Positions 6,001-33,000 of a stretch of DNA of 64,000 nucleotides are shown piece by piece (position 1 is the stretch's first letter; every line of letters begins with the position of its first letter). Made by a program: the position numbers. This DNA is from Syntrophorhabdaceae bacterium (lineage in GTDB: Bacteria > Desulfobacterota > Syntrophorhabdia > Syntrophorhabdales > Syntrophorhabdaceae), in assembly GCA_963665295.1 (NCBI GenBank), contig OY762209.1, forward strand, positions 4,992,001 to 5,056,000. The letters are read 5' to 3'.

Positions 6001-9000
6001 ACATTATTTGCCAACCCCGGTAGGTCCGATCCGGCCTATCGCTGCGCTCAATACACATATATTATTTAATATCAGCACCTTACACCACCTTAGCGGCCAA
6101 CGGCACGGTTATTGCCTCAAGATATGGAGGACGCAAAATACCTTCCCTTTTTCAGGAGGCAGGGAGATGAAAGAAGAAAAAGACCTTTTGATGATCGTAA
6201 TTCTCGGATTTGCACTCCTCGCCTTTTCGTGCACTTCCACGGGATATAATACCCAGAAGGGGGCCGCCATCGGTGCGGGCGTGGGCGCCATAGCAGGACA
6301 GGTCATAGGAAGCAATACGGCCGGAACATTGATAGGAGCTGCGGGCGGCGCTCTTGCGGGAGCCATTGTGGGCAACGCCGTGGATCAGAATGAAAACCAG
6401 AAGAAACTCGAAGCAGCACAGAGGTCCGCGGACGCGGCTGCCGCCACTTCGGATCAGCCTCCGGGACAGTGGGTCGAAGTCCCCGGGGGATGGATCGGAG
6501 GAAAATGGGTACCCGCCCACAGGGCATGGGTCCCGGTAAATCCCGGTCAATACGTGCAATAGACCCGATAAACAGCGCTCTTCCTCATTTACATACCTCC
6601 AAAGGATGGCCCCTCCCGGATACCCCGCCGGGAGGGGCCATCAGCCTTTCCACCTGTTTCTATTTACCCTGTGCCTCTTATTCCGTCGGTCCCGTTTCAG
6701 GGGTCTAACGGCCTTCCTTCTCCTTCAGCGCTTTGAGTACCTTTTCCGCGGTAATGGGGAGGTCCGTGATCCTCACGCCCACTGCGTCGTAAATTGCATT
6801 CGCGATGGCGGGCGCCGTGGGCACGAGCCCCGGTTCCCCTATCCCTTTGGCCCCGAAGGGTCCGTCCTGTTCATCCGTTTCCACAATTACCGCCTGGACC
6901 GGAGGCACGTCCTTTGCCGTGGGCATCTTGTAGTCAAGAAAGTTGCCGTTCTTCAGCACGCCCTTGTCGTAAACCATTCTTTCCCCGAGAGCATAGCCGA
7001 TCCCCATGAGCCCTCCCCCGTAAATCTGACCCTCCAGAAGCATGGGGTTCAAAGCCTTGCCCACATCATGGGCGGCCACGTAGTTGAGGATCTTCACCTT
7101 TCCCGTCTCTTTGTCCACCTCGACCTCCACCCCGTGAGCGCCATAGGCGTATGATACCGACAGGTTTCCCCTGAAGTCCTTGTCGAAGTTCTCGTTTGGC
7201 GGATCATAGAAGTACTCCGCCACGAGCATCCGGCCTCCCGGCGTGTAATGCACTTTTCTCAGCACCTTGGACAGGGAAATGTTCTTCTCCTTATCGTTGG
7301 TGGAAAAGATGATGCCGTCCTTCATATCGAGCGCTTCCGGGGCTTCCTTGAGGTTCCCGGCGGCGATAGCCATGATTTCGGCCCTTATCTTCCGGGCAGC
7401 GCCGAGGGCCGAATTCCCCGCCACAAAGGTGGTCCTGCTTGCGTGGGCCCCCACGTCCCAGGGACATACGTCCGTGTCGTTGTTGATGATGTTGATATCG
7501 TCCACGGGAATGCCGAGGACTTCCGACACGATCTGAGCGATGATCGTTTCCGACCCCTGGCCTATTTCCGATGACCCGGTAATGACGTCCACCTTACCGT
7601 TATCATCTACCTTTATAATCGTGCCGCACCCGTCGGACTTATAGACCCTGGCCGCGCCTCCCACATGGATGAGGGCCGCCATACCCACACCTCTTCCATT
7701 ACGCTTTCCCCTCTTTTCCTTCCAGTCAAGCCTCTTCACTACTTCTTCGATGCACTCCTTCATCCCGCAGGAGGTAATCTTGAAGTTCTGGGGCGTAACC
7801 TCTCCCGGTTCATTCGCATTGATGCGACGGATCTCGACAGGGTCGATGCCGGCTTTCTCGGCAAGCTTGTCGAGGAGGGATTCGATGGCGAAGGTGGCCT
7901 GGGGGTTTCCGTAGCCCCTCATTGCCTGACTGTAAGTGTTGTTCGTATACACGCACTTCGCCGTGTACCTGATATTCGGCACCTTGTAAAGGGACGAGAT
8001 GGGCACCATCATGACGGAAGGCGTCGTCGCCCCCCAGGATGTGTATGCGCCGTTATCGAGGACCATCTCCATCTCGCGGAAGGTGAGTTTTCCGTCTTTG
8101 TCGCACCCCTGGGATATTTTCGTGATGGTGCACTGCCTGGGAGAGGTGGCGAGAAATTCCTCTTCCCTCGAAAAGACGATCTTCACCGGTTTCCTTGTGT
8201 TCATGGCGAGGAGGATGGCAATGTACTCATAGGCGTAGGTATCGAGTTTGCTGCCGAAGCCGCCGCCGATGACCGCCTGGATGACCCTTACCCGTTTTCT
8301 CTTCAAGCCGAAGGCCTTCAGGGCTTCCGCGAAATCATTCTGCGCGAGGGATGGTATCTGGGTGTTGCTGTATACGGTAAGGTTATTGTTCACATCGAAG
8401 GATGCGACGCAGCCGCTCGTGCCGAGACAACAGTGCGTCACCCACTGGGTGCTGTAGCTGTCCTCCGCCACAAAGGCCGACTCTTTCTTTGCGGCTTCCA
8501 CATCGCCGTGGACGAACTTCCAGGGCATCTTGAGGACATTCGATTTAAATTCCTCGTGTAACAGGGACGCCCCTTCCTTCATCGCGTCCAGGGGATCGAA
8601 AATCCCCGGCAGTTCCTCGTACTCGACCTCAATCAGATCCAGGGCCTCCTCCGCTATCTCGGCGCTTATGGCCGCTACAGCGGCAATCTCGTCCCTCGTG
8701 GACAGGACCTTGCCCGTCTTGAGGGGAGGGTTGTCTTTGAGAAAACCGAACTTGAAATTATTGGGCACATCCGCACCCGTAAGCACGGCCTTCACACCGG
8801 CAAGTGCCAGGGCTTTGCTTGTGTCGATGCTCACTATTTTGGCGTGGGCATATTTGCTGTAAAGTATCTTGCCATGGAGCATGCCCGGGACCTTCACGTC
8901 CTGGATATAAAGGGCACCGCCGGTCGCTTTGAGGGGTGCGTCCTTCTTCGGGATCTTCTTTCCTACTACCGTCAGAACGTCCATGGTCACCTCCCACCTG

Positions 9001-30000: not shown

Positions 30001-33000
30001 CCCTTCCGGACCTCATCGATATCATGATCCTCTTCGTCATCATCATGTACGCCCTTTTTACCGGCGTGGTAACGGCCACGGAGGCCGCGGCGGCAAGTTG
30101 CGCCATAGCGCTGATCCTCTGTCTCGTACGGAAGAAAATAACATGGCAAGGCTTCATTGCTTCCATTGTCGATACACTCCGTATCTCCTGCCTCGTCTTC
30201 ATGATCGTCGCGGGAGCGGTTATTTTCGGAAGATTCCTCGCGGTTACGAGGCTGCCCTATGAAGCCGCCTCCATCATATCGAGTCTTGCCCTCCCCAACT
30301 GGGTGCTCTTCTGGATCATCATACTCTGTTACATCATAGGCGGCTGCGTCATGGACGCCCTCGCCTTCCTTCTCGTCTCCCTGCCCATCTTCTATCCCAT
30401 CGTCATGCAGATGGGGTATGACCCGATCTGGTTCGGCCAGGTTATCTGCATAGTGACCACCATGGGATCGATTATGCCGCCCATTGGAATATGCTGCTAC
30501 GTGGTTGCGGGGATGGCGAAGGAGATCCCCCTGGGCACGGTATTCAGAGGGAGTCTTTACTACATACCTTCCTACATCGTATCCATCATACTCCTCATGC
30601 TCTTCCCCTACTCGACGGTCCTGGTGCTTTCCAATATTGTGCGGTAGGGACAACAGGACAAATAATGAAGCCGGGGCTCCCGAAAAGGGCCCCGGTTCTT
30701 TTATGGGATAGAACGGATTTTAACGGAGTCGGGGCGGCTACCGCTCACCGCCTTGCGAAGACGTCGGCAACCACCACGTTCGGATTCCCCGTCCGTAGAT
30801 TCCTCGAAGTCCTCAAAATCTTCGCTTCCCTGAAACCTGCCTGGAAGAACTCGTTGAGAAAGGCATCTCCTTCCCTGGCGCCGCTTATTCAGGCGAGCCA
30901 GCTCTTTTCCGTGGGCTCCCTCGGGCCTGCGACGGGCCTTACGAGAATCAGCTCGGCGGCGTATACCTGACCGTCTTTCCGGACCACTCGGGATAGCTCC
31001 CTGAAGATGGCCTCACGATGGGGATTGAGGTTGAAAATTCCGTTCACCATGGCCACATCGATCTCGCCGTCCTTCAAAGGAAGGTGTTCGGCGGGGGATT
31101 CATGAAATTCGATATTTGCGACGCCCGCTTCCTTTGCGGACCGCAAAGCACGCTCTATCATGGGACGGCTGAAATCAATGGCGACAACCCGTCCCCCGGG
31201 GCCTGTCTTCCGGGCCGCGATAATCGTGTCAAGCCCCGCGCCGCACCCCAGGTCGAGAACGGACGACCCTTCCCGTATCTCCGCATGAATGGAAACATTG
31301 GAAGCCCCTGCAAAGGCGTCAACGCTGTCAACGGGCAGGGTATCGAGCACCTCCCCCGAATAGCCCACGCTCTCCGCAAACGCCCTTCCCACGGGAAACA
31401 GGTGTTCCCCCTCAGGCCTTTCCGCCGCCGAGGAATAAGCCTTCCTCACGCCCTCGTACAGCCGTTTCGCCAGGTCTTCATCCATAAAACGCTCCTGAAA
31501 ATTCCATGATCTACGTCCCTATCATGTGGTCACGCCCCATGATTCCATCAGTCTACCCCATTTTGCAGGGGTCATCCAGCGCAAAAAACAGTCACCGGCG
31601 CTGCCGCTTCACCCTGATCGCCCGTCGGGCGACCCCGGCCATCTTCCCCCTTATGCCTTCCGGTCGACGAGCACATGTTCGACGGTAAAGAAGGCCGTCG
31701 ACGCGCCCAGGTCCACGAACTTCGCTTCGTCTTCAACGAACATGGCCCGCAGGTTTTGGCCCTCGGGCGAGTTGATGGCCGCGAGAAAATCTTCTTCCGA
31801 TTCCCACCATATCTCGCCCACGCCGTCATAGGCCTCCATCATGCCCCGTGACTTCCTGATGTTTTCGTTCAAGGGTGAATCAATGGTGTGGCTCTGGACA
31901 TAACGCACCGCCCTGTAAGTCTCCGCAAATTTCTGAAACATCGGCCCATGATGGTTGAGCCAGTAATCCTGGAACTCCGCCCGGGACATCCCGTGCCGCC
32001 GTCTGGCACAAAATACAAGTTTGATCATAGATCAGCCTCCTCTTCCGAAATTCATAGCTTTTCAATGCGCACGACCCTCTCGAAACGGTTTGCTACCGCA
32101 AGGGAGTGGGTCACGCAGATGATGGTCTGCTTCTGGAAATTGGCAAAAAGGTCGTCGAGGATCTTCTGTTCTGTCGCCTGGTCCAGGGCCGACGTAAACT
32201 CATCGAGCAGGAGAATGGCGGGATCACGCACCAATGCCCTCGCCAATGCGATGCGCTGCCGCTGGCCGCCCGACAGGTCGGTCCCTTTTGTGCCGATGAC
32301 GGTATCGTACCCGCGCGGCATGCCCATAATGGTATCGTGAATACGGACACGCTTCGCCACATCCATGATGATGTCCATGGGAACCGAATACCATCCCGTG
32401 GCGATATTTTCACGTAAGGTTGTTTTGAAAATATACGGGGTCTGTCGCACATAGGAAAAGTTCTGCAGGTAATGGGGCAGGCTGAAGGCATTGATGGGCC
32501 GCCCGTCAAGGAGGATTTCCCCTTCGTCCGGCTTTATCTGCCTGGTAAGAAGGTCGATAATGGTGCTCTTCCCCGCGCCGCTGGGCCCCATGATGGCAAC
32601 CTTCCCTCCCGGCTCGACGGTAAGGCAGAAATCCCTTATCACCGGTTTTCCCGCCACATGGCCGAAGGACACATTGCAGTATTCGATGCACGTCGATCCC
32701 ATGATCTCCGTGATGCCGGCAACGGGTCTTATCTCTTCCTCCGGGTAGTCCAGAACCTCCTCGATTCTCCTCATGAGCGGTGAGGCCTGGATCAGCTTTG
32801 TCATGCCGAAAATGATGGACTGGAGACTGTAGGCGATAAAAGACAGGTACACATTGTACGCAATCAGGGTGCCCACGCTGATGTTCGTGAGGCCGCGGCA
32901 AATCCAGTAACCCCCCAGAAGGAAGGGGAAGAATGTGATCAGCCTCGAAAGGAACTCCATGGAATGGAAAGTACCGTCCCCCATAACCACGGAACGTATG

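Follow-up and report, generated by a model that had tools for sequence, protein, structure and literature searches.

A predicted core of a regulon for anaerobic indoleacetate breakdown in a Syntrophorhabdaceae bacterium

Indoleacetate is a product of tryptophan as well as a plant hormone (auxin). The question raised by a locus on contig OY762209.1 of a Syntrophorhabdaceae bacterium is whether it serves to break down this compound without oxygen, as proposed in a survey of the genome, or whether the enzymes act on something else. The window, i.e., the whole stretch of DNA that was analysed, comprises 64,000 nucleotides, and positions below count from its first letter unless stated otherwise. 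In our reading, which we hold at a probability of about three in four, the locus would be the core of a catabolic regulon for anaerobic indoleacetate breakdown by an iaa-type route.

Two divergent gene units

The minus-strand string of 13 genes described by the survey was borne out: 13 intact and tightly packed ORFs occupy 6705-23177, none with an internal stop and each with a Pfam match over essentially the full model length. Neighbouring genes lie -64 to 66 nt apart, save for the ligase start, which follows the hydantoinase B stop by 187 nt. Their products are a Mo hydroxylase of three subunits, a PaaK-like CoA ligase, the hydantoinase B/A pair, a B12 acyl-CoA mutase split over two genes, two acyl-CoA dehydrogenases (ACADs), MeaB, a family III CoA-transferase and a GntR regulator (g04637, GntR+FCD) that had gone unnamed in the survey. 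The divergent second Mo-hydroxylase set and TRAP transporter were also confirmed, with their genes intact and full length, in a plus-strand unit at 23391-30647, which the survey's end coordinate of 30647 takes in.

6705-9050, minus: Mo hydroxylase set 1, MoCo-binding alpha subunit (Pfam Ald_Xan_dh_C, MoCoBD_1, MoCoBD_2); translation probably begins some 30-40 codons 3' of the GTG at 9050
8987-9454, minus: set 1, 2x[2Fe-2S] subunit (Fer2, Fer2_2)
9465-10439, minus: set 1, FAD subunit of XdhB/CoxM type (FAD_binding_5, CO_deh_flav_C)
10454-11749, minus: PaaK-like aryl-acetate-CoA ligase, IaaB-like (AMP-binding, AMP-binding_C_2)
11937-13667, minus: hydantoinase B-type subunit, ATP-dependent lactamase (Hydantoinase_B, full length)
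13648-15756, minus: hydantoinase A-type subunit, ATP-dependent lactamase (Hydant_A_N, Hydantoinase_A, Hydant_A_C)
15798-17426, minus: B12-dependent acyl-CoA mutase large subunit, IaaG-like (MM_CoA_mutase)
17436-17840, minus: mutase B12-binding small subunit, IaaH-like (B12-binding)
17862-18590, minus: GntR/FCD transcriptional regulator within the operon (GntR, FCD)
18607-19761, minus: IaaF-type ACAD paralogue 1, P0001 (motif YGGGTHEIL)
19828-20979, minus: IaaF-type ACAD paralogue 2, P0002 (motif FGGGTSEIL)
21040-21987, minus: MeaB, G-protein chaperone of the mutase (MeaB)
21987-23177, minus: family III CoA-transferase, IaaL-like, first gene of the operon (CoA_transf_3, full length)
23391-24392, plus: Mo enzyme set 2, FAD subunit of HcrB type, P0122, with a four-Cys [4Fe-4S] loop
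24389-24868, plus: set 2, 2x[2Fe-2S] subunit (Fer2, Fer2_2)
24697-27156, plus: set 2, alpha subunit (Pfam), likely start near 24868
27227-27625, plus: orf132, decayed methylmalonyl-CoA-epimerase-like (VOC) remnant, from alignment to intact copies
27669-28787, plus: TRAP solute-binding protein DctP, Dde_0634 homologue (matches to 4N6D, 4PGN/4PGP, 4NAP)
28852-29337, plus: TRAP small membrane subunit DctQ (DctQ)
29166-30647, plus: TRAP large membrane subunit DctM (DctM; TIGR00786 above cut-off), likely start near 29340

The same string is present in 29 Syntrophorhabdaceae-type loci and recurs, reshuffled, in loci of Anaerolineae, Desulfobacterota and archaea, so that the arrangement cannot be put down to chance. 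Nor is the operon peculiar to this genome: 59 of 69 family genomes, representing all 15 genera, have IaaF-type genes, and 54 of the 69 have the mutase gene. The names on the best hits agree with the Syntrophorhabdaceae lineage label.

Control region and displaced modules

The two units share one control region, and related modules lie further along the window:

23245-23342: shared control region, with promoter-like sites face to face
23245-23273, plus: promoter-like site TTGACA-17-TAACAT
23342-23314, minus: promoter-like site TTGACA-17-TATACT
23283-23302: palindromic operator-like repeat GTCTAC-G-GTATAC-A-GTATTC
55536-56792, minus: class III aminotransferase/aminomutase-like gene, displaced (78% to the L069 orthologue)
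56816-57958, minus: saccharopine-dehydrogenase-like gene, displaced (84% to the L069 orthologue)
57976-57988: operator-like site GCATAC-G-GTATAC, 18 nt 5' of the saccharopine-dehydrogenase-like start
61028-61303, minus: FixX
61300-62568, minus: FixC
62561-63517, minus: ETF alpha
63528 to past the window end (window-equivalent 64301), minus: ETF beta (all four by Pfam and NCBIfam)

In all six aligned loci the hexamers and the palindrome vary little or not at all, and the consensus, GTATAC-N-GTATAC, is common to the operon and the displaced modules. Within the window the motif occurs six times against 0.55 expected. Of 48 loci, a set in which some contigs are represented by more than one record, 30 have it no more than 300 bp 5' of the gene that opens the operon; among the 29 Syntrophorhabdaceae-type loci (CoA-transferase identity of at least 69%), 28 have it within that distance 5' of the CoA-transferase gene. 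Enrichment across the genome is modest, with 13 sites versus about 8 expected from composition, at least four of the 13 being intragenic. The genome has three perfect matches, all 5' of one or other of its two FixABCX copies; two, at genome positions 5056391 and 5056673, lie just upstream of the FixABCX genes at 61-64.3 kb, in the spacer common to these and an operon resembling indolepyruvate oxidoreductase (IOR). The IOR-like operon, which shares the operator, follows directly past the window, and IOR-like genes head the iaa-like operons of Anaerolineae that have no ligase. The GntR/FCD gene occupies the same position in relatives (38-72% identity), and its product probably represses the face-to-face promoters through the palindrome and probably also governs the displaced modules bearing the same site.

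Enzymes, transporter and the proposed route

Passages of PMC8360864 describe GGG in place of the YEG of other ACADs in all IaaF orthologues, and state that these are always encoded together with other iaa genes. Both P0001 and P0002 read GGG at this position. A small-residue motif was found in 90 of 109 aligned ACADs (78 GGG, 11 GAG and 1 AGG), namely P0001, P0002 and all 88 locus homologues of at least 44% identity; 11 homologues at 38-40% identity have YEG or PDG, and the eight other ACAD paralogues of the genome have YEG, FEG, FAG or VEG. P0001 and P0002 are the sole genes of their type in the 5.5-Mb genome. P0001 has orthologues of 84-90% identity in loci with two ACADs. The closest solved structure to the mutase is HCM 4R3U, a 2-hydroxyisobutyryl-CoA mutase, but the window mutase keeps the Tyr (RQYTGF) and Arg (GRGAW) of the methylmalonyl-CoA mutase type where 4R3U has Ile and Gln. 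DctP is a close homologue of Dde_0634 (336 bits to 4PGN/4PGP and 335 bits to 4NAP), which according to a supplement table of PMC10443332 was solved with indole-3-acetate, indole-3-pyruvate and D-Trp, although DctP is closer still to Desal_3247 (404 bits to 4N6D). The GGG of both ACADs, the Tyr/Arg pair and the likeness of DctP to an indolic-acid binder are three independent supports of the survey's iaa-type reading; the putative orthology to iaa genes rests on motif, gene linkage and the identities of 37-45% given by the survey.

MeaB (TIGR00750, 287 bits, cut-off 241) and the large and small mutase subunits (TIGR00641 and TIGR00640) exceed their cut-offs. All the other enzymes fall below the curated equivalog cut-offs of the nearest named family, and we therefore infer their substrates. 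The set 1 alpha subunit (TIGR03194, 658 bits, cut-off 995) has orthologues of 74-88% identity at the operon end in relatives; its FAD partner has no 4Fe-4S loop, is best matched among solved structures by CO dehydrogenase CutM and only partially by HcrB. The ligase scores 397 bits on TIGR02155 (cut-off 646), the Hydantoinase_B and Hydantoinase_A proteins reach 254 and 525 bits on the caprolactamase beta and alpha models, both below cut-off, and the CoA-transferase has its best solved relatives among succinate-hydroxymethylglutarate and formyl-CoA transferases. The second Mo enzyme belongs to the 4-hydroxybenzoyl-CoA-reductase type: P0122 finds its best solved match in 1RM6_B at 154 bits, where the four loop cysteines all align, and scores 239 bits on TIGR03195 (cut-off 405), and the alpha subunit (TIGR03194, 646 bits, cut-off 995) has orthologues of 73-87% identity in 17 other family genomes. 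Speculatively, this enzyme may deaminate 2-aminobenzoyl-CoA.

In the route that we propose, each step of which is drawn from homology and gene linkage, indole-3-acetate, and probably also indole-3-pyruvate, would be converted to 2-aminobenzoyl-CoA or benzoyl-CoA without oxygen. The TRAP system (27669-30647) would import the indolic acid, and the PaaK-like ligase would form indoleacetyl-CoA, which might alternatively arise from indole-3-pyruvate by an IOR-like 2-oxoacid:ferredoxin oxidoreductase. The set 1 Mo hydroxylase would hydroxylate C2 of the pyrrole ring; hydantoinase A/B with ATP would open the lactam to give (2-aminophenyl)succinyl-CoA; the family III CoA-transferase would shift the CoA; and the B12 mutase with MeaB would yield (2-aminobenzyl)malonyl-CoA. 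The two GGG-type dehydrogenases would then oxidise and decarboxylate this to 2-aminocinnamoyl-CoA, passing electrons to ETF/FixCX, and beta-oxidation enzymes encoded elsewhere would lead to 2-aminobenzoyl-CoA and the benzoyl-CoA pathway. A BamA-type ring hydrolase that is encoded elsewhere in the genome and scores above its cut-off fits this downstream route. Syntrophic, methanogenic use of indoleacetate is suggested by the lineage; the data that bear on it are this hydrolase and the absence of dsrA from the genome.

It is unlikely that the same enzyme logic serves another physiological substrate. Candidates include tryptophan or indole-3-pyruvate entering mainly through the IOR-like enzyme, the plant compound 2-oxindole-3-acetate, ring-substituted indoleacetate (e.g., 5-hydroxy-indoleacetate), and a heteroaryl-acetate yielding an arylsuccinyl-CoA after ring opening. 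The sub-cut-off scores of the catalytic proteins would fit such a substrate, as would the binding of indole-3-pyruvate and D-Trp by Dde_0634 in that table, the operator common to the IOR-like operon, which replaces the ligase in Anaerolineae clusters, and the divergence of the two IaaF paralogues (56% identity), which with two Mo enzymes could handle two related substrates. However, retention of the PaaK-like ligase in the operon favours a free aryl-acetate as one entry, and, according to passages of PMC8360864, indoleacetate degradation is to date the one known setting of the arylsuccinyl-CoA module (transferase, mutase and GGG dehydrogenase).

Missing parts and known systems

The survey had called the operon complete, which does not hold: it contains no beta-oxidation genes (to 2-aminobenzoyl-CoA), and no ETF-FixCX (the survey itself had noted that the string has no ETF), and the neighbouring epimerase-like gene has decayed. 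The loss of ETF-FixCX and of the epimerase-like gene, with the scattering of other modules, might mean that the pathway is eroding in this genome and no longer runs to completion, which we consider very unlikely. In favour of this reading, orf132 has no Pfam match and, aligned to intact VOC copies, shows a 31-column internal gap and SDDL for the conserved IDHI, while the copy in L069 is intact (80 bits on TIGR03081), as is that in G051, a genome of the same genus; ETF-FixCX follows ACAD1 inside the operon in 20 related loci; and the saccharopine-dehydrogenase-like/aminotransferase pair, which is within the iaa string in G049, G021, L017, L018 and L069, has moved 25-27 kb off. However, the 13 operon genes, second Mo enzyme and TRAP genes are all intact, G051 has the identical ETF-less order, indicating an arrangement stable in the genus, single-ACAD variants of other genera likewise have no in-operon ETF, the operator is retained at the displaced modules, and another VOC gene (46% identity) is present in the genome. 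The FixABCX genes at 61-64.3 kb, the closest relatives in this genome of the in-operon ETF-FixCX of L010, at only 41-63% identity, are a candidate electron acceptor system for the IaaF-type dehydrogenases.

Action of the mutase/dehydrogenase module on aliphatic alkylsuccinyl-/alkylmalonyl-CoA or in biosynthesis, with the Mo enzyme and lactamase as unrelated neighbours, has a parallel in the alkylmalonyl-CoA of anaerobic alkane degradation (introduction of PMC8360864) but is disfavoured as highly improbable by the co-location of Mo hydroxylase, lactamase, ligase, mutase, dehydrogenase and transferase across phyla, the single control region for both operons and a transporter related to an indolic-acid binder.

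With indoleacetate as the probable substrate, the pathway itself would be a known one, and iaa operons of strict anaerobes are already in print; the Syntrophorhabdaceae, methane-linked degraders of aromatic compounds, would be a new host lineage for it.

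An iaa-type operon and its probable indolic substrate

The genome is a single contig of 5,508,164 bp with a completeness score of 98%, and the names of its nearest homologues place it in the Syntrophorhabdaceae. We found that positions 6705 to 23177 of the minus strand hold 13 head-to-tail ORFs, in each of which the Pfam match covers essentially the whole model, and that profile matches recover a divergent unit with a second three-subunit molybdenum (Mo) hydroxylase and a TRAP transporter; both the 13-gene string and the divergent neighbour reported by the survey are thus real. 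The intergenic gaps in the operon are small, except for 187 nt ahead of the ligase gene, and the operon includes a GntR/FCD regulator that the survey had left unnamed. A look-up of RNA runs listed none that contains positions 13648-23177.

Features of the operon and its divergent neighbour (window positions)
6705-23177, minus strand, iaa-type operon, transcribed in the order family III CoA-transferase, MeaB, two acyl-CoA dehydrogenases (ACADs), GntR/FCD regulator, mutase B12-binding subunit, mutase large subunit, hydantoinase A, hydantoinase B, PaaK-like ligase, and the FAD, 2Fe-2S and MoCo subunits of a xanthine-dehydrogenase-family enzyme (Mo set 1)
18607-19761, minus strand, P0001, IaaF-type ACAD
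19828-20979, minus strand, P0002, IaaF-type ACAD
23391-30647, plus strand, divergent unit of a second three-subunit Mo enzyme (Mo set 2, 23391-27156), a small ORF and the TRAP transporter

The cluster is correctly read as iaa-type and represents a known pathway in a new lineage, with useful accessory detail. Most of its enzymes score below the equivalog cut-offs of the nearest named families, and the substrate is best read, from the IaaF motif, the mutase residues, the TRAP binding protein and the hydantoinase pair taken together, as probably indole-3-acetate or a very close indolic acid.

According to passages of PMC8360864, all IaaF orthologues carry GGG in place of the catalytic YEG near the C-terminus, and their genes are always clustered with further conserved iaa genes. 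P0001 and P0002 have the motifs YGGGTHEIL and FGGGTSEIL, respectively, and their genes are flanked by those for the mutase, MeaB, CoA-transferase, hydantoinase A/B, ligase and Mo hydroxylase, a linkage that recurs in related loci. In an alignment of 109 ACADs, of which 80 related loci supplied 99 and the present genome 10, a small-residue motif (78 GGG, 11 GAG and 1 AGG) was present in both window proteins and in all 88 locus homologues of at least 44% identity; 11 locus matches at 38-40% identity retain YEG-like motifs, and the eight other ACAD paralogues of the genome carry YEG, FEG, FAG or VEG. A search of the genome revealed no IaaF-type gene beyond P0001 and P0002. Homologues with 53-54% identity in Archaeoglobaceae and Thermoplasmatales loci (L065 and L050) also have GGG. 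The GAG proteins, 45-49% identical to P0002, form a subgroup in Anaerolineae iaa-like clusters (L029-L031, L045, L046, L048, L049, L051-L054 and L056); in L029 and L031 the GAG protein adjoins a GGG copy, and the corresponding second ACAD of L030 is GGG.

The mutase is split, with a B12-binding domain and a MeaB chaperone recognised by profile matches. Among PDB entries it scored higher against 2-hydroxyisobutyryl-CoA mutase (HCM, 440 bits) than against methylmalonyl-CoA mutase (MCM, 333 bits), and it fell below the MCM equivalog cut-off (438 versus 876). It retains the Tyr and Arg aligned with those of MCM, at sites occupied by Ile and Gln in HCM, whose roles have been assigned in the MCM and HCM literature. 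These residues are consistent with a substrate that carries a free carboxyl group, for example an arylsuccinyl-CoA, as would suit an IaaGH-type mutase of dicarboxylic acyl-CoA esters. The known MCM and HCM systems (1REQ, 2XIJ and 4R3U) with MeaB are alike in having split large and small subunits, the B12-binding domain and MeaB, but the partner genes of the window mutase are iaa genes.

The first gene encodes a full-length CoA_transf_3 protein, for which the survey gave 37.3% identity to IaaL, and the PaaK-like ligase, a putative counterpart of IaaB, scored 397 bits against a PaaK cut-off of 646, which is compatible with an aryl-acetate other than phenylacetate as its possible substrate. By profile scores the hydantoinase A/B pair is caprolactamase-like, and its occurrence in one operon with a three-subunit Mo enzyme resembles the iaa arrangement at the family level; the iaa locus of the 2012 Aromatoleum study is said to include a Mo enzyme and a hydantoinase. 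In three related MAG loci (L017, L018 and L069), the ligase gene directly follows that of the mutase, with no hydantoinase A/B genes between them, so that the lactam-opening enzyme would be encoded elsewhere or be a different one.

The TRAP binding protein, DctP, gave 336 bits to 4PGN/4PGP and 335 bits to 4NAP in PDB, the 336 bits being those of an alignment without gaps over 311 residues with Dde_0634, the ligands of which are D-Trp, 3-indole pyruvate and 3-indole acetate (PMC10443332); passages of two more papers also name Dde_0634 as an indoleacetate binder. DctP is nearer to Desal_3247 (4N6D, 404 bits) than to Dde_0634, 4N6D having been crystallised with a phasing compound only.

A common operator and displaced modules

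The two highest-ranking promoter-like sites of the region lie face to face in the 213-bp spacer that separates the operons, with the repeat GTATAC-N-GTATAC between them, and both the sites and the palindrome are conserved in all six aligned loci. In 30 of 48 loci, a number that includes some duplicate records of one contig, the motif was found no more than 300 bp upstream of the gene for the CoA-transferase; of the 29 loci in which the transferase is at least 69% identical, 28 have it there. Genome-wide, there are 13 operator sites with at most one mismatch, as against about 8 expected by composition. Seven of them lie at related units and four are intragenic. Of the two others, one is flanked by the genes of an AMP-binding ligase and a PAS kinase, the other by those of a GlcD/GlcF-like pair and an AEC transporter; none of the sites was found to adjoin a beta-oxidation gene.

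Operator sites at related units
Spacer between the iaa operon and the divergent unit, two overlapping sites
18 nt upstream of the displaced saccharopine-dehydrogenase-like gene, one site
Spacer between FixA and the divergent operon just past the window end, two perfect sites
Second Fix copy, one perfect site
Mo-enzyme cluster at 2.686 Mb, one site

The operon divergent from FixA (genome positions 5056791-5061652, or 1791-6652 of the adjoining stretch L091) encodes a 408-aa protein with partial similarity to the alpha subunit of indolepyruvate:ferredoxin oxidoreductase (IOR), an IOR beta-like protein, an IOR alpha-like protein and a Peripla_BP_6 binding protein. Its alpha and beta subunits are under the IOR equivalog cut-offs (524 versus 651 bits and 109 versus 206 bits, respectively), and the operon is IOR-like only. 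A copy of the Peripla_BP_6 gene, 99.8% identical, is located at genome positions 4276659-4277961. IOR-like genes also head the ligase-less iaa-like operons of Anaerolineae. The picture that we infer is of a regulon under GntR control in which indoleacetyl-CoA would be formed in two ways, by the ligase from indole-3-acetate and by the IOR-like enzyme from indole-3-pyruvate.

The description of the operon as complete does not hold, in that no beta-oxidation genes were found linked to the locus, the in-operon ETF is absent and the VOC (methylmalonyl-CoA-epimerase-like) gene has decayed. Specifically, in 20 related loci the first ACAD gene is followed by a module for ETF beta and alpha, in most cases accompanied by FixC and FixX, and this module is missing both here and in the congener (G051). 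Its closest relative in the genome is the FixABCX module at 61028-64301, yet the identity is only 41-63%, which does not support a true orthologue. A 3.6-kb segment containing FixX, FixC, ETF alpha, ETF beta and the operator (60832-64000, extending to the equivalent of position 64441) has a 99.8% identical copy at genome positions 3886399-3890008, where it directly follows dnaG and rpoD-like genes. A lone enoyl-CoA hydratase gene is located at 36991-37764.

In the family genome G049, a single co-directional string runs from the CoA-transferase gene through those of Mo enzymes 1 and 2 to a VOC gene, a saccharopine-dehydrogenase-like gene and a class III aminotransferase-like gene, and G021 is similar. 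In the present genome, the VOC gene corresponds to orf132 (27227-27625, plus strand), which has no Pfam match, shows a 31-column gap and carries SDDL where six intact homologues have IDHI; with the conserved metal-binding His motif gone and the fold gapped, it is not an intact methylmalonyl-CoA epimerase. Clear orthologues of the saccharopine-dehydrogenase-like and aminotransferase-like genes are present at 55536-57958. This pair, the second member of which resembles glutamate-1-semialdehyde aminomutase, accompanies the iaa clusters of relatives, always beside the VOC gene; a polyamine function was rejected on a carboxynorspermidine synthase score of 35 bits against a cut-off of 800.

Elsewhere in the window, positions 46331-46755 contain internal repeats (offset of about 72 nt, 83-90% identity) within a 400-aa ORF without Pfam family (46176-47378), and a similar stretch is found at genome positions 339300-339693. 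A 694-aa ORF at 38135-40219 likewise has no Pfam family, and the sole domain of a 764-aa ORF at 49255-51549 is Nal1 C-terminal peptidase-like.

The second molybdenum enzyme

The FAD subunit of Mo set 2 (P0122) was best aligned with Thauera HcrB, and all four Cys of the [4Fe-4S] loop of 1RM6_B are matched by Cys, whereas the FAD subunit of set 1 lacks the four-Cys loop. The loop of set 2 is of the kind described as ferredoxin-accepting. However, all three subunits are far under the NCBIfam equivalog cut-offs (646 versus 995 bits for TIGR03194, 239 versus 405 for TIGR03195 and 169 versus 258 for TIGR03193), which rules out a canonical 4-hydroxybenzoyl-CoA reductase (4-HBCR) and leaves an enzyme of the 4-HBCR type. 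Compared with HcrABC of Thauera aromatica (1RM6 and 1SB3), it has the same three-subunit architecture and the HcrB-specific four-Cys loop, but differs in its gene order, beta-gamma-alpha, and in having as genomic partner the iaa operon, not genes for phenol or 4-hydroxybenzoate.

No gene in the genome attains the HcrA (alpha) or HcrB (beta) equivalog cut-off. Among 13 xanthine-dehydrogenase-family alpha matches, seven exceed 590 bits on the HcrA model. Of the FAD subunits, no more than two have an HcrB match that spans essentially the whole model. The context of the other HcrB-type enzyme of the genome (L087), consisting of Mo enzymes and class V aminotransferases, was uninformative.

Set 2 has the operator and the face-to-face promoters in common with the iaa operon, and is placed inside the operon in Anaerolineae and G049. 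A tally of gene positions shows that, in 23 of 69 family genomes, the contig with the iaa mutase or IaaF gene also carries a 4-HBCR-type alpha gene at a distance of 9-22 kb. This linkage suggests the speculative and on balance improbable idea that set 2 may be the long-sought dedicated deaminating 2-aminobenzoyl-CoA reductase of strict anaerobes with class II benzoyl-CoA reductases, which would take off the amino group that indoleacetate breakdown leaves behind and so yield benzoyl-CoA. Passages of PMC7500099 state that Desulfatiglans anilini has 4-HBCR-like proteins in abundance solely on aniline or 4-aminobenzoate, and propose them as a deaminating reductase (putative 4-aminobenzoyl-CoA reductase), which would provide an attractive precedent with the para-isomer. 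As an alternative, set 2 might be an indole-3-acetaldehyde hydroxylase or a second ring hydroxylase. Under the deaminating reading, the linked 4-HBCR-type enzyme becomes a candidate for the step that disposes of the amino group in 2-aminobenzoyl-CoA.

Distribution and comparison with known iaa systems

Of the 69 species genomes of the family, 59, representing 15 of 15 genera, have an IaaF-type gene and 54 have the mutase; the trait therefore belongs to the family and not to this genome alone. Related strings were also found in Anaerolineae, Desulfobacterota and archaeal MAGs. Indole-3-acetate is a plant hormone and a major product of tryptophan fermentation, and the Syntrophorhabdaceae of methanogenic sludge, sediments and soils are known to degrade phenol, benzoate and phthalates. 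From the nearly family-wide occurrence of the locus, a new class of substrates is predicted for the family. The label syntrophic is suggested by lineage, by the presence of a BamA-type hydrolase and by the absence of dsrA from the present genome.

In the open literature we found no paper naming the organisms that mineralise indole-3-acetate in methanogenic sludge, sediments and soils, and no link between Syntrophorhabdaceae and indoleacetate, including in passages of PMC8674449. Among the matches listed for syntrophic or methanogenic degradation of indole-3-acetate, nothing was relevant as judged by title and start of abstract. The conserved operator offers a handle for regulon mapping and sensor building.

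Predicted iaa operons of strict anaerobes were reportedly described by Schuhle et al. in 2016 and 2021. As the survey had noted, such operons are in print; passages of PMC8360864 report predicted ones in Desulfatiglans anilini, strain NaphS2, Desulfocarbo indianensis, Ferroglobus placidus and a Thermoplasmatales archaeon, often with a dedicated ETF paralogue and with up to three IaaF paralogues. The present locus resembles them in having an IaaF orthologue inside an iaa-like cluster of a strict anaerobe, but belongs to another lineage, its host, judged by the dsrA test, reduces neither sulfate nor iron, and its ETF is encoded away from the operon. The physiological electron acceptor of Aromatoleum IaaF is given as unknown in passages of PMC8360864, and the ETF-FixCX module within the operons of relatives is a candidate for this role in strict anaerobes.

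The genes iaaABCDEFGHIJKLMPQR of Aromatoleum aromaticum EbN1 and A. evansii KB740, which convert indoleacetate anaerobically to 2-aminobenzoyl-CoA, encode the same enzyme types, namely a CoA ligase, a Mo hydroxylase, a hydantoinase-like lactamase, a family III CoA-transferase, a B12 mutase and a decarboxylating GGG-type ACAD, together with regulators and a binding protein (passages of PMC8360864 and PMC9613470, and, in part for the Mo enzyme and the hydantoinase, reportedly the 2012 study). Identity to the Aromatoleum proteins is 37-45% by the survey's figures. Unlike Aromatoleum, the present host belongs to the Syntrophorhabdaceae, is strictly anaerobic and lacks dsrA, and its locus adds two IaaF paralogues, a Dde_0634-type TRAP transporter, the GntR/FCD regulator, a second Mo enzyme of the 4-HBCR type, a link to ETF-FixCX and an IOR-like entry.
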